Shown here: one piece after another, positions 3,933 to 16,695 of the stretch
Numbering within the stretch: the first letter of the stretch is position 1
Layout: each line of letters begins with the position of its first letter
Source: a virus
Taxonomy: Duplodnaviria > Heunggongvirae > Uroviricota > Caudoviricetes
DNA: 64,000 nt
Virus record (IMG/VR): IMGVR_UViG_3300021388_000002
Direction: 5' to 3' (one strand)
Notes under the pieces: model-generated
Told to the model about the DNA's origin: nothing
Databases searched by the model: none
What the model saw: the letters and a program-made list of their open reading frames with translations, nothing else
Translations under genes and position numbers: made by a program

Positions 3933-5579
3933 CTACAGCCGCCCGGCCGAGTGGTCGGCCAGCAGCACCGGGACCGCCGCGTCGAACCCGGAGACGTCCA
4001 GCGTGCCCGGGTCGGCCGGGTCGGCCACCGAGATGCGCGTCGGCACCGTCGCGACGAACTGCAGCTTCGCGCCGATGCCCATCGTCTGCCGGTAGGCCTC
4101 CAGGGCCTGGTGCGGGTGCGCCTGGCCCACGTTGATCTCACCATCGGTCCAGACGGTGAACGTGTCCACCTCCACCCGGTTCTGCGCGGCCCAGATCATC
4201 GGCAGCGCGATGTTGGTGGCACCCATGGGCAGGTCCGAGACCCGCCGCAGGACGGTGTCCAGCCGCATCCGCGGGGACAGGTCCAGCGGCCGGAACTCGT
4301 GGCTGAACCCGTACACGCCCCAGGCCGGCTCGGTGGCCATGGTAACCAGCGCCATGGCCGCCGTCATCTCCCGCGCCGTGCAGCCGTAGCCGGCCGCGTT
4401 CCAGCCCATCGACGCCGAGATGTCCAGCGCGATCATGGTCCGCTTCCCGGCCGGCTCCACCGCGCCGAAGGCCAGGTAGAACGCATCGGTCAGCGCATCG
4501 GTGACCTGCGGGATGGGCGCCCACCGGCTGGAGCCCTTCTGGCTGCGCCCGGTCGTGTAGACCCGGGCCGCGATCAGCAGCGACATCGGGTGCACCCGCC
4601 CGCGCCGCAGCAGCTCCGCGTCCCGCAGCCGGTCACACACCGCCCGCAGCCGGGCCGACATGGGCGCGATGACATCCAGCCGGGTCAGCGTCGGCAGGTT
4701 CCGGATCAGCGCGGTGATAGGCATGCCCGCATCGACCAGGGCACCCCAGACCTCCGGCATGGCCCGGGCCCCGTCCGGCAGCGCCTCCCACGGCAGCCCC
4801 GGGTAGTCGGCGATCAGCTGCACGTACGCCGCCGCCTTCGCCCGCCGGGCCAGCGCGGAGCCGGACGCCCGCTCGATGTCGCGCGCCCGCAGGTAAGCCC
4901 GGACCCAGTCTGGCATCAGCTCATCCGGCACCACGCCCGAGGTGACCCAGGCGAACAGCCGGCTGTGCATCTCCATGACGGTGCCGTCCGGCAGGGCCGG
5001 GTACGGGTGCGCCAGCCGCAGGATGTCGGCGTGCGTCCAGCCGTCCCGCTGCCGGTACTTGACCAGCTGGTAGGCCAGCGCGTCCGGGTCGCGGCCCAGG
5101 TACCAGGACGACACCGCCCGCCGGGTCACCGGGCCCCAGCCGCCGAACTGCTCGATGTACTTGCAGAACGTCGCCAGGGCCGAGCCGGTCCGCACGACAG
5201 CCGGGACCGCCCGCTCAGCCGCCCGGCGGCCCTCCGCGGTGGCGCCCAGCTGCAGGGCCGCCGCCAGCGCCAGCAGGGCAGGGGCCTGCCGCGGAGCCCG
5301 GCCCGCGACCGAGATCTGGGTGACCAGGCCCACCAGCTGCCCGGTGCGGTCCCGCGCCCAGGCCAGCACCAGCTCGCCGTTCTCGCGGGTCAGCTGCGCC
5401 TCGTCCACGTAGAACGTGCCGCCCGTGGTGCCCATGGTCAGGAACCGGCGCAGCCGCACCTCGTCAGCGACGGCAAAGCCCCAGCCCCCGGTGTGGTTGG
5501 GCACCTGCCGCGGGTCCGCCTGGACGTGCACAGGCGTAGCGGCGTTGCGGGTCCGGATCAGCTCCAGCGCATCGGTCAT
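3933..5579 (-). CDS. rsr: Ro60/Rsr TROVE-domain RNA-binding protein with vWA domain
   Basis: LRRFLTMGTTGGTFY, YQLVKYRQRDGWTHADILRLAHP, vWA MIALDISASM, FTVWTDGE; GGAGG SD at 5586-5590, so start is ATG 5579. Confidence 0.93.
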   Translation of the reverse strand: MTDALELIRTRNAATPVHVQADPRQVPNHTGGWGFAVADEVRLRRFLTMGTTGGTFYVDEAQLTRENGELVLAWARDRTGQLVGLVTQISVAGRAPRQAPALLALAAALQLGATAEGRRAAERAVPAVVRTGSALATFCKYIEQFGGWGPVTRRAVSSWYLGRDPDALAYQLVKYRQRDGWTHADILRLAHPYPALPDGTVMEMHSRLFAWVTSGVVPDELMPDWVRAYLRARDIERASGSALARRAKAAAYVQLIADYPGLPWEALPDGARAMPEVWGALVDAGMPITALIRNLPTLTRLDVIAPMSARLRAVCDRLRDAELLRRGRVHPMSLLIAARVYTTGRSQKGSSRWAPIPQVTDALTDAFYLAFGAVEPAGKRTMIALDISASMGWNAAGYGCTAREMTAAMALVTMATEPAWGVYGFSHEFRPLDLSPRMRLDTVLRRVSDLPMGATNIALPMIWAAQNRVEVDTFTVWTDGEINVGQAHPHQALEAYRQTMGIGAKLQFVATVPTRISVADPADPGTLDVSGFDAAVPVLLADHSAGRL

Positions 5580-5639
5580 GGCGCACCTCCTGTCGTGCGG
5601 TTCGTGCTGCGGTCGTGCGGGCTGAGGGCGCAGGGCCCC

Positions 5640-5718
5640 GCGAGCGAAAAGCGGCAGCCGGGCTGTTTTCACAGATTCCTTTGGATGAGAAAGGTGAGAA
5701 CCGGTCACCATCCGGCCC
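5640..5718 (-). ncRNA. Y-RNA-like gene 4 (short, no tRNA module)
   Basis: 5' GGGCCGGAUGGUGACCGGUU pairs with 3' CCGGCUGCCGCUUUUCGCUC; termini shared with the three upstream copies. Confidence 0.6.
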
Positions 5719-5748
5719 GCGGGGGCCCTGCGTCTTCAGTTGTGCCTG

Positions 5749-5873
5749 GCAAGCAAAGTGCGGCTACCGGGTTTTACGCGCTCTGCCGTTGAGCTACCGG
5801 GGTCACTGACCCCAGGCGGGACTCGAACCCGCAACCTCGCCATCCACAGTGGGTAACCGGTTGCCATCCGGCC
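5749..5873 (-). ncRNA. yrlA: YrlA-type Y RNA with permuted tRNA module (T arm, closed acceptor stem, D arm)
   Basis: GCGGG-UUCGAGU-CCCGC, CUGGGGUCA/UGACCCCGG, UAGCUCAACGGCAGAGC, enclosed by a GGCAACCGG/CCGGUAGCC stem; upstream of Ro60. Confidence 0.85.
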
Positions 5874-5892
5874 TGCCAGGTAAAGCGAGCTG

Positions 5893-5995
5893 GCGAGCGA
5901 AGCGCGAAGACCGGGTTCCCCGCCCTGCGGGGAGGGCCAGGTTTTATCCCGGCCCGGTGGAATCGAACCATCGGTAACCAGCCTTCATCCGGCCC
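5893..5995 (-). ncRNA. Y-RNA-like gene 2 (T-loop hairpin only)
   Basis: 5' GGGCCGGAUGAAGGCUGGUU pairs with AACCCGGUCUUC; contains UGGUUCGAUUCCA; 3' GCUUCGCUC. Confidence 0.65.
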
Positions 5996-6016
5996 GCCAG
6001 CAAATCGTGAGGAGAC

Positions 6017-6117
6017 GGGCGAAAGCTGAGCACCGGCTAGACCCCTGGAAGGGGCTGGGGCTTCACAGACCCCGGGTGGGCTTGCGCCCTGGCGTGATAA
6101 CCGCCGCTCTCCGGCCC
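6017..6117 (-). ncRNA. Y-RNA-like gene 1
   Basis: 5' GGGCCGGAGAGCGGCGGUUA pairs with UAGCCGGUGCUC; 3' GCUUUCGCCC. Confidence 0.6.
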
Positions 6118-6132
6118 GTCTCCAGGCCTGAT

Positions 6133-6149
6133 CCATAGCGTGAGCATCA
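6133..6149 (+). repeat. 17-bp motif CCATAGCGTGAGCATCA, copy 1 (inverted copy at 19484-19500)
   Basis: Exact 17/17 match. Confidence 0.85.
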
Positions 6150-6168
6150 TTACGCGATTCGCGTATTG

Positions 6169-6207
6169 TGGCCCCGGCGGGACTCGAACCCGCACACCCG
6201 GCTTAGG
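6169..6207 (-). pseudogene. 3' half of split tRNA-Arg(CCT)
   Basis: CCTAA GCCGG GTGT GCGGG TTCGAGT CCCGC CGGGGCC A; acceptor strand matches the 5' half at 6712-6744. Confidence 0.85.
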
Positions 6208-6279
6208 TTGGCCCGGCGGGACTCGAACCCGCACGCACGACTTAGGGGGTCGCCGCTCTATCCTCTGAGCTACGAGCCA
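6208..6279 (-). tRNA. tRNA-Arg(CCT), nested copy, C33
   Basis: Cloverleaf, loop CC CCT AA, U1-A72; overlapped by the endonuclease 3' end. Confidence 0.8.
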
Positions 6280-6688
6280 TTGGGTCTAGCAGGTATGCCG
6301 CAGCGTCCCTAGTACCTAGAGACTGGTTATTGCGGGCAGGCTGCAGTCTAAGGGCGACCGTGCGCCTGTAACCAGCTACATCTTCAATAGGGATCAGATA
6401 GACCTGGCTTAGAGCGGCTAGATAAACCCCGAAAAGATCAACTTGGCCCTCGTAACACTTACGCGGCGATCCGGGCCCCGAACTGGAGACATTGAACTCT
6501 AGCGCCGAACCGTCCCTCACCAGGCGTGCTGTTTTGCACTGAACCCGCTTGAACTGGCCGCTCGACTCAATGACCAGGTCATACCGCGTAACCCCAAATG
6601 GCACGAGCACGTTGTAGCCAGCATGCAGCAAGACCGAGAGAATAGCGCCTTCAGTCCGTGCACCCTTCTCATTGGTAGTGAGGGCCAT
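6242..6688 (-). CDS. PD-(D/E)XK endonuclease, I-Ssp6803I-like
   Basis: KGARTE...YDLVI...RVQCKT...YEGQVDLFGVY; stop codon lies in the anticodon loop of the nested tRNA. Confidence 0.85.
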   Translation of the reverse strand: MALTTNEKGARTEGAILSVLLHAGYNVLVPFGVTRYDLVIESSGQFKRVQCKTARLVRDGSALEFNVSSSGPGSPRKCYEGQVDLFGVYLAALSQVYLIPIEDVAGYRRTVALRLQPARNNQSLGTRDAAAYLLDPMARSSEDRAATP

Positions 6689-6695
6689 GGTTTAT

Positions 6696-6701
6696 AGACT
6701 A
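6696..6701 (-). promoter_or_regulatory. -10 box TAGTCT for the endonuclease (leaderless)
   Basis: 7 nt before ATG 6688. Confidence 0.5.
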
Positions 6702-6711
6702 CCAGCTAGCT

Positions 6712-6744
6712 GGCCGTGGCTCTGATCCATTGAGCTACGGGGCC
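6712..6744 (-). pseudogene. 5' half of split tRNA-Arg(CCT)
   Basis: GGCCCCG TA GCTC AATGGATCA GAGC C ACGGC C, then unrelated sequence. Confidence 0.85.
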
Positions 6745-6935
6745 AGAAGTCCCAGCTTGTCCCCGCTTGTCCCAGCGTCTTGCGGGCCAGGCCGCCACGG
6801 TGTGAAAGTGAACGTGTGCAGCCGGTCTGCTCCGGATCTGTGCGGATAGTGAAACGGTCCCGCCCTGTGGTCCCGGTAACCGGGATTCCTGGCAAATCAG
6901 GGCGGGACCAAAATTCCGGGCGCCCGGAAAATCAG

Positions 6936-13149: not shown

Positions 13150-13189
13150 AGCCCCACAGCGGGATCGAACCGCTGACCTTCGCCTTACG
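13150..13189 (-). pseudogene. 3' half of split tRNA-Thr(CGT)
   Basis: CGT AA GGCGA AGGTC AGCGG TTCGATC CCGCT GTGGGGC T. Confidence 0.88.
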
Positions 13190-13261
13190 AGCCTGCTCGG
13201 AGGATCGAACTCCGACTATTTCCTTACCAAGGAGGCGTGCTGCCATTGTCACTAAGCAGGC
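13190..13261 (-). tRNA. tRNA-Thr(GGT), nested copy
   Basis: GCCTGCT/AGCAGGC acceptor, loop TT GGT AA; anticodon stem has mismatches. Confidence 0.78.
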
Positions 13262-13662
13262 GTGTTCAGCTCATACTGCTCGGCCAGCCTGATCCCCTTC
13301 TGCTGGTTGTTCCTGGCCGGCTCCAGCCTGAGCGATCCGAGACGGCTTCCCACGTCCTCGACCGGCACCAGGTAGACCTTGGTGTTCTGCGGGCAGTAAA
13401 CGCCGAAGTACTCAGCTTCTCCCCGGTAAGGCCGGGTGCTGCCGCCGCGGTGAGCGTGCGAGCTGGCTGCGTTGAAATCTATGCGGCCATCTCGCATCCA
13501 GCCCGTTTTGCACTGGATGCGCAGGAACTTACCCCCATCGTCCACCACCATGTCGTAGCGACGGCCGTTCCCGAAAGGGATCAGTACGCTGTCGTAGACC
13601 TGGAGAAGGGCTGCCATGACGATGGCTTCGGTCCGATCGCCGATGCTGTGTGTATTAGGCAC
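13252..13662 (-). CDS. PD-(D/E)XK endonuclease, I-Ssp6803I-like
   Basis: IGDRTE...RYDMVVD...RIQCKT...Y.GEAEYFGVY; stop inside the nested tRNA-Thr. Confidence 0.88.
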   Translation of the reverse strand: MPNTHSIGDRTEAIVMAALLQVYDSVLIPFGNGRRYDMVVDDGGKFLRIQCKTGWMRDGRIDFNAASSHAHRGGSTRPYRGEAEYFGVYCPQNTKVYLVPVEDVGSRLGSLRLEPARNNQQKGIRLAEQYELNTPA

Positions 13663-13668
13663 ACCATC

Positions 13669-13674
13669 ATCTTA
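13669..13674 (-). promoter_or_regulatory. -10 box TAAGAT for the endonuclease (leaderless)
   Basis: 6 nt before GTG 13662. Confidence 0.55.
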
Positions 13675-13677
13675 CAC

Positions 13678-13709
13678 AGGCGACGCTCTGCGGGCTGAGC
13701 TAGCGGGGC
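13678..13709 (-). pseudogene. 5' half of split tRNA-Thr(CGT)
   Basis: GCCCCGC TA GCTC AGCCCGCA GAGC G TCGCC T. Confidence 0.88.
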
Positions 13710-14773: not shown

Positions 14774-14852
<79 letters not shown>

Positions 14853-14859
<7 letters not shown>

Positions 14860-14917
14860 TCGAACGGGGCACCTGCTCATTACGAGTGAGCTGTTCTTCC
14901 GGCTGAACTACCGGGGC
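14853..14917 (-). pseudogene. Truncated tRNA-Thr(CGT) lacking the 3' acceptor strand, fused into tRNA-Leu(GAG)
   Basis: GCCCCGG, D arm, GCTCA CT CGT AA TGAGC, then a T arm whose last 7 nt are the Leu 5' end. Confidence 0.8.
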
Positions 14918-15025
14918 AGCAGCAGCCTGCGAGACCAGGGTCGCAAACTCCTGGCACACCGCACAGGCGTCCCTGTTCCCGGTCCCGCCAGGTAATGCCC
15001 GCGTAGACCGGTCTCGGCTGCCTAG

Positions 15026-16623: not shown

Positions 16624-16695
16624 TGGGACCTGGAGATTCTGAGACTCCGACCTACGGTATTTCACACCGTCGCTCTGCCGCTGAGCTAAGGCCCC
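16624..16695 (-). tRNA. tRNA-Phe(GAA) with non-canonical T loop
   Basis: ACGGT GT GAA AT ACCGT; T arm GGAG-TCTCAGAAT-CTCC lacks TTC. Confidence 0.72.

Follow-up and report, generated by a model that had tools for sequence, protein, structure and literature searches.

Homing endonuclease genes are thought to persist by way of self-splicing introns and inteins, or by occupying intergenic sites. I-Ssp6803I, which is intron-borne and mainly cyanobacterial, is a tetramer with a 23-bp pseudo-palindromic target (PMC3384342). In phage T4 the free-standing GIY-YIG homing endonuclease SegB is encoded within a tRNA gene cluster (PMC2330249), HNH genes beside tRNA arrays are on record (PMC8421152), and for jumbo gut phages a count of stand-alone PDDEXK_5 genes is available (PMC12880540). 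In the literature searched, no account was found of a cassette of endonuclease plus spare tRNA nested in a tRNA gene.

The locus considered here has such a nested layout. It occupies 6169-6744 of a 64,000-nt stretch of DNA (the window, by which the stretch as a whole is meant), with all features on the minus strand (Table 1). A sequence-only reading had described a split tRNA-Arg(CCT) within which a PD-(D/E)XK gene and a further, whole tRNA-Arg(CCT) are nested, and every coordinate of that layout was confirmed by direct reading, ARAGORN, Pfam and Rfam. The locus is probably a DNA-level mobile element, i.e. a free-standing I-Ssp6803I-type endonuclease gene welded to its own tRNA-Arg(CCT) and inserted in the anticodon loop of the resident gene.

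Anatomy of the split tRNA-Arg(CCT) locus

The 5' half of the outer tRNA, as read directly, comprises the acceptor strand GGCCCCG, T8, a D arm with stem GCTC/GAGC and a loop containing A14, GG and A21, the anticodon stem strand ACGGC and C32. The 3' half runs, in order, through CCTAA, GCCGG, a 4-nt variable loop (GTGT), the T arm GCGGG-TTCGAGT-CCCGC and the acceptor strand CGGGGCC to the discriminator A; the acceptor strands pair 7/7, the 3' strand being complementary to 6744-6738. When the halves are joined in silico, with position 33 filled either with T or with the inner discriminator A, ARAGORN returns tRNA-Arg(cct). Split tRNAs at the loci of relatives were located with explicit D-arm and T-arm fragment finders, and in 10 control loci without flanking halves no junction-spanning tRNA was obtained in about 1800 trial joins per locus. 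Since the controls gave none and the same layout recurs in relatives, the split layout is not due to chance.

The insert between the outer halves is 504 nt long and holds the palindrome, the TAGTCT box, the ORF and the complete inner tRNA; the last two between them account for all of it but 23 nt (6689-6711). Weight had previously been placed on the inner discriminator occupying outer position 33, which does not hold up, the base being A where U is expected and the right junction lying elsewhere in relatives; as far as these sequences go, the coincidence is not a conserved feature.

Table 1. Features of the split tRNA-Arg(CCT) locus, with loci of the clean-split group for reference
Feature	Coordinates	Strand	Basis or remark
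Outer (resident) tRNA-Arg(CCT), 5' half, positions 1-32	6744..6712	-	direct reading
12-bp palindrome CCAGCTAGCTGG, left end of insert	6713..6702	-	overlaps last two bases of outer 5' half
TAGTCT, -10-like TAnnCT box, 7 nt 5' of ATG	6701..6696	-	conservation
Predicted homing endonuclease gene, 148 aa, I-Ssp6803I family	6688..6242	-	PF11645, fold, motifs
Inner tRNA-Arg(CCT), complete	6279..6208	-	ARAGORN; Rfam 57.3 bits
Overlap of ORF 3' end with inner tRNA positions 1-38, 38 nt	6279..6242	-	ORF list and direct reading
Outer (resident) tRNA-Arg(CCT), 3' half, anticodon C34 to discriminator A	6207..6169	-	direct reading
Clean-split loci L026, L028, L037, L038, L040, L043, L044, L047			both halves, acceptor 6-7/7
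Clean-split loci L049, L051, L054, L056, L057, L063, L093, L137			both halves, acceptor 6-7/7

The ORF product matches PF11645 over residues 5-133 (E=1.4e-26; 93.6 bits against a curated cut-off of 26.1 bits). Its sole PDB relative by sequence is 2OST (I-Ssp6803I; E=0.002), and the top PDB match of its AlphaFold model (mean pLDDT 80) is likewise 2OST, chain A (TM 0.72, E=3.4e-9). Across 25 homologues six residues (P30, G32, Y36, D37, Q50 and K52) do not vary, and these invariant columns align to the YD and VQxK motifs of 2OST (YDLV, VQVK). By sequence and modelled fold, the product is thus assigned to the I-Ssp6803I-type PD-(D/E)XK homing endonucleases. The GC3 of the gene is 0.60, as against 0.84-0.93 in neighbouring phage genes, which implies that it has not long been shaped by this genome. 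A large protein collection contains 67 homologues, of which the closest dozen are 57-71% identical and all have the same tRNA-encoded tail. Among GenBank phages no near relative was found by DNA, and protein matches were only distant (29-35% identity); the viral-contig relatives were found by an alignment-based scan, a single-protein scan having returned none.

The inner tRNA is the only Arg(CCT) among the 37 tRNAs that ARAGORN calls in the window. The ORF stop TAA (6244..6242) was found, as had been proposed, to coincide with T36-A37-A38 in its anticodon loop; the overlap of protein-coding and tRNA sequence that this entails also stands, the length of about 37 nt first given for it being corrected to 38 nt with the stop codon counted. 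The 38-nt overlap is present in L001, L002, L066 to L071, L072, L084, L085, L087 and L090, and is maintained across the whole endonuclease subclade. The tRNA-encoded tail of the protein (residues 139-148) has pLDDT values below 50 and is predicted to be disordered. In relatives the protein tail covaries with compensated changes in the acceptor stem (e.g. TGGCTCG, TGGCTAG and TGGCCCG, for all of which the 3' strand is altered to match); because the tail varies in step with these changes, the overlap is seen to evolve as tRNA, with the tail as passenger. Position 33 of the inner tRNA is C in the window (6247, minus strand) and T in all 7 related inner tRNAs, a change that also converts the last ORF codon from Ser (TCC) to Pro (CCC). 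Given C33 in place of the near-universal U33, it is uncertain how well the inner tRNA would serve for rescue.

At the left end of the insert, relatives have a palindrome of 12-16 bp in the same place and of different sequence, e.g. CCCGCTAGCTAGCGGG in L068 and CCCGTAGGCTTACGGG in L086. It is GC-rich, its arms covary and in most relatives it abuts the TAnnCT box; the combined arrangement, at 6696-6713 (minus strand) in the window, occurs in the same place in L001, L066, L068, L084, L086 and L088. An alignment of 8 relatives shows no variation in the T, A, C and T columns of the box or in an ATG 6-7 nt downstream, while the surroundings vary. A scan with the sigma-70 consensus found no full promoter, so that it is conservation that points to a promoter function. 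In Actinobacteria a TAnnnT box at such a distance is typical of leaderless transcripts, and the TAnnCT box appears to be the endonuclease's own promoter, with a leaderless start. The palindrome could be an operator, for which autorepression by I-TevI is a precedent, or a hairpin ending upstream transcripts. A derivation of the palindrome from a mutated copy of the anticodon arm was considered and rejected, as the alignment of relatives assigns it to the left end of the cassette.

Relatives, synteny and junctions

The full nested layout is found on four uncultured actinophage contigs, i.e. the window, L001, L066 and L068. The nested copies in the latter three have 6-7/7 acceptor pairs with differing junction positions, and their DNA aligns with that of the window from 6746 to 6166, the limits of the element itself. 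Other loci have part of the layout. In L067/L087 and L069 to L071 a 5' tRNA fragment, the endonuclease gene and a tRNA are present without a 3' fragment; in L002/L085 (L002 4001-4520) the endonuclease gene and tRNA-Arg(CCT) are followed by a tRNA 3' fragment, the neighbours being IS elements and two-component regulator genes, a bacterial-type context that suggests a chromosome or plasmid more than a phage genome.

An uninterrupted tRNA-Arg(CCT) gene is present in L009 and L006, where it lies after tRNA-Cys(GCA) and before a conserved sequence, ATGCTCACGCT; the window, L009 and L006 have in common the tRNA order Arg-CCG, Cys-GCA, Arg-CCT. In the window, L001 and L068 the same ATGCTCACGCT is located 3' of the outer 3' half, and in L001 the outer 5' half begins 1 nt past tRNA-Cys, matching the resident gene in L009. 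Thus, on the basis of this synteny, the conserved 3' sequence and the tRNA-Cys spacing, the outer halves are taken as the resident gene and the remainder as an insertion. An origin of the halves from unrelated tRNAs, which had been named as the finding that would count against the nested layout, is contradicted by the same synteny; they represent one resident-type tRNA. It counts against the reading as a mobile cassette that the outer halves are surprisingly well preserved for dead DNA, in that pairing persists in their acceptor and T stems and the differences from locus to locus are compensatory. Occupancy by cassettes is sporadic, i.e. at Arg(CCT) and Thr(GGT) in the window, Arg(CCT) only in L001, Thr(GGT) only in L009 and Val(CAC) only in L006.

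The left junction lies after position 32 in the window and at about position 26 in L068, and the right junction at about 44 in both L001 and L068, as against 33 in L066 and 34 in the window. These differences suggest separate events or later erosion. All four nested copies are at one syntenic site, and vertical descent from a single old insertion, followed by erosion, is a possible alternative. The inner tRNAs of the window, L066, L068 and L002 are 81-88% alike; that of the window is 77% identical to its own outer tRNA and 65% identical to the resident gene of L009. As judged from these sequences, the endonuclease and the inner tRNA are co-inherited and travel together.

Proximity to tRNA genes is a habit of the family, most of the 63 viral-contig PF11645 loci being inside tRNA arrays and on the tRNA strand. 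Among 27 tabulated loci with an abutting tRNA, the ORF ends 10 nt inside the tRNA in 10, its stop codon being the conserved U8-A9-G10 (tRNA nt 8-10); the subclade of the Arg(CCT) cassette instead uses nt 36-38 of tRNA-Arg(CCT). One of the 10 is a second cassette in the window, at 13150-13709 (minus strand), which is nested in another tRNA-Thr. Its PF11645 gene (13662-13252), which is 44% identical to that of the Arg(CCT) cassette, overlaps tRNA-Thr(GGT) (13261-13189) by 10 nt with its stop at U8-A9-G10, and in L001 the tRNA-Thr(GGT) at the corresponding site is uninterrupted. In L041 (2414-2960) a PF11645 gene is flanked by tRNA-Lys(TTT) and tRNA-Lys(CTT), both of which have the same 14 nt (AGGTACACTATGTT) at their ends.

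Several further observations concern the surroundings in the window. A match to the YrlA-like family (bacterial Y RNA) at 5743-5867 (minus strand; 47.6 bits, E=3e-9, below the Rfam gathering score of 69) adjoins a Ro60/TROVE gene (3933-5711, minus strand), and L001 has the same order of cassette, Ro60 and portal. A tRNA at 16624-16695 (minus strand) was found by Rfam and missed by ARAGORN, and the ARAGORN calls for tRNA-Leu(GAG) and tRNA-Thr(CGT) at 14774-14918 (minus strand) overlap by 15 nt.

Intron, recombination scar or mobile cassette

A permissive Rfam scan (E<=1) of 5600-6900 detected neither Intron_gpI nor any other ribozyme; within 6169-6744 the scan returned only the inner tRNA and, over the outer T arm, two fragments that score below the family threshold. 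The ends of the insert, AGCTAGCTGG on the left and GGGCCAA on the right, are not complementary to each other and do not pair with the anticodon. The lack of a detected ribozyme and the unpaired insert ends together argue for a DNA-level mobile cassette, not an intron. By contrast, in a further PF11645 group (the clean-split loci of Table 1, with the endonuclease at about 2500-2950 in most) the tRNA is split cleanly, an inner tRNA is lacking, a group I intron was not detected in any of the 12 loci scanned, and the anticodon is paired by the ends of the insert. An anticodon stem lengthened by complementary ends is seen in L026, L028 and L037, those of L026 being the anticodon-pairing TTTTCAC...GTGAAAA. 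This group may represent a ribozyme-less, possibly spliced class; its features are absent from the Arg(CCT) cassette of the window.

The existence of such relatives, with anticodon-pairing ends, no inner tRNA and no detected ribozyme, does raise the idea that some family members are spliced, and the outer halves of the present locus retain all canonical tRNA features, including 7/7 acceptor pairs. It could then be that the 504-nt insert acts as an intron, with the outer halves rejoined as RNA, by a protein-dependent or other route, to give a second tRNA-Arg(CCT). Such an explanation is regarded as highly improbable, given, in addition to the unpaired ends and the undetected ribozyme, that the outer gene is without position 33, that the inner tRNA has the identical anticodon so that splicing gains nothing, that L067 and L069 to L071 retain the 5' fragment only, and that the junctions vary by locus. 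A somewhat better, though still unlikely, candidate is a scar left by recombination or duplication within a tandem tRNA array, in which the nuclease is merely resident between tRNAs and either cuts elsewhere or is inactive. Arrays of tRNA genes rearrange readily, unequal exchange could proceed through 21 nt of T arm that are identical in the inner and outer 3' halves, and many PF11645 genes simply adjoin a tRNA without flanking halves. A scar does not, however, sit well with a break in the anticodon loop, where the characterised member of the family has its target, with the recurrence of like breaks across different tRNA species and endonuclease subclades, or with an intact ORF in which the catalytic columns are conserved.

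It is also conceivable, with a low probability lying between those of the intron and the scar, that the cassette benefits the phage, by excluding co-infecting relatives through cleavage of their tRNA-Arg gene, by rearranging or amplifying the tRNA array, as reported for SegB of T4/T6, or by supplying a variant tRNA beyond the reach of a host anticodon nuclease. In favour are the unusual C33 of the inner tRNA and the behaviour of SegB, which cleaves tRNA genes from its place in the T4 tRNA cluster and gains preferred inheritance (PMC2330249), and which also amplifies anti-defence loci (PMC13096335). Against this, C33 is restricted to the present window among 8 inner tRNAs and the composition of the gene is not adapted to the phage; sequence does not separate benefit from selfish spread.

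In the preferred reading, that of a mobile DNA-level cassette, the enzyme would, by analogy with I-Ssp6803I, act on a co-infecting relative that has a resident-type tRNA-Arg(CCT) gene without an interruption, and cut that gene in the DNA of its anticodon stem-loop; repair of the break would copy the cassette across from the donor genome, with homology provided by the tRNA sequences that flank it. An exact-pattern search of viral contigs found no uninterrupted outer-type anticodon arm. The broken outer gene would have no RNA-level repair; the inner tRNA, as the only tRNA-Arg(CCT) of the array, would take over its function, and the cassette would be tolerated without an intron. The inner copy would have to escape cutting, probably via altered base pairs beside the loop.

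With respect to this last point, the inner and outer tRNAs do have the same anticodon and different anticodon stems (inner GCGAC/GTCGT versus outer ACGGC/GCCGG), in agreement with the sequence-only reading, and it is plausible that the inner tRNA has been recoded for nuclease resistance. In 4/4 resident or outer genes (window, L066, L009 and L006) pair 30:40 is G-C and pair 31:39 is C-G, and these loop-proximal pairs are changed in 6/7 inner tRNA genes, within what is a small and related sample; the inner tRNA of the window has A-T at 30:40, plus C33. The changed pairs fit an enzyme that reads the stem beside the loop. The inner tRNA of L066 retains the resident-type GC...GC pairs, so immunity cannot rest on pairs 30:40 and 31:39 alone.

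The endonuclease would be transcribed from its own TAnnCT promoter, 6-7 nt before the ATG, to give a leaderless mRNA. Cleavage by RNase P at the 5' end of the tRNA would remove the stop codon and leave a stop-less mRNA. Because the stop codon lies inside the tRNA and is lost on such cleavage, tRNA maturation and enzyme synthesis should compete, and any single transcript would yield either the tRNA or the full-length enzyme. A more elaborate version, put forward tentatively, is that the cassette is a natural, self-contained 'home-and-rescue' drive, combining an inner tRNA under selection for resistance to cutting, halves that act as portable homology arms and a doubly throttled enzyme output. 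If so, the homology arms would admit the cassette to any genome with a similar tRNA-Arg(CCT), whether phage or bacterial, and it can be inferred that the throttles would be the palindromic operator beside the leaderless promoter and the competition of RNase P with translation.

Relationship to known mobile systems

The closest characterised relative is I-Ssp6803I in the group I intron of Synechocystis tRNA-fMet, with which the cassette has in common the PF11645 assignment, the fold, the motif columns and a site in the anticodon loop (2OST; PMC3384342). By contrast with that system, the cassette is without an intron, and tRNA function would be restored by a second tRNA gene, not by splicing; its ORF overlaps the tRNA by 38 nt, and its host is an actinobacterial phage, not a cyanobacterium. 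SegB resembles the cassette in being a free-standing endonuclease gene within a phage tRNA array, and cuts the tRNA gene DNA of a related phage, carrying flanking tRNA genes along (PMC2330249); the sporadic presence or absence of the cassette among syntenic relatives is a further likeness. SegB, however, belongs to another nuclease family and is encoded between tRNA genes, without a split target or an overlap of ORF and tRNA. The invasion of an important gene without a self-splicing RNA, with the damage mended, is seen also in the 'fractured genes' with split inteins (PMC2677866) and with mobE in T-even phages (PMC2790892). In those cases the products reassemble or are protein-spliced, whereas the cassette brings a whole spare copy of the gene.

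If the proposed mechanism is correct, homing endonuclease genes have a third route to persistence, in which a gene is broken and a replacement is supplied, and the gain, swap and loss of tRNAs in phage tRNA arrays would in part be explained. The cassettes would also yield triplets of enzyme, target and immune target that can be tested for a little-studied nuclease family. There is also a warning for annotation, in that tRNA halves near such endonuclease genes are real features that tRNA finders miss.

In engineered cleave-and-rescue and home-and-rescue drives, the wild-type copy of a needed gene is destroyed by a nuclease to which an uncut copy is linked; these drives are synthetic, Cas9-based and constructed in insects. 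The cassette has this logic in common with them, and would, if the mechanism holds, be its phage-evolved counterpart; it differs in being natural and protein-guided, with the resistance of its rescue copy being putative. The best reading of the locus is that it is of a known kind, a selfish homing endonuclease element, and that what sets it apart from the systems compared here is the rescue of the target with a spare tRNA copy.
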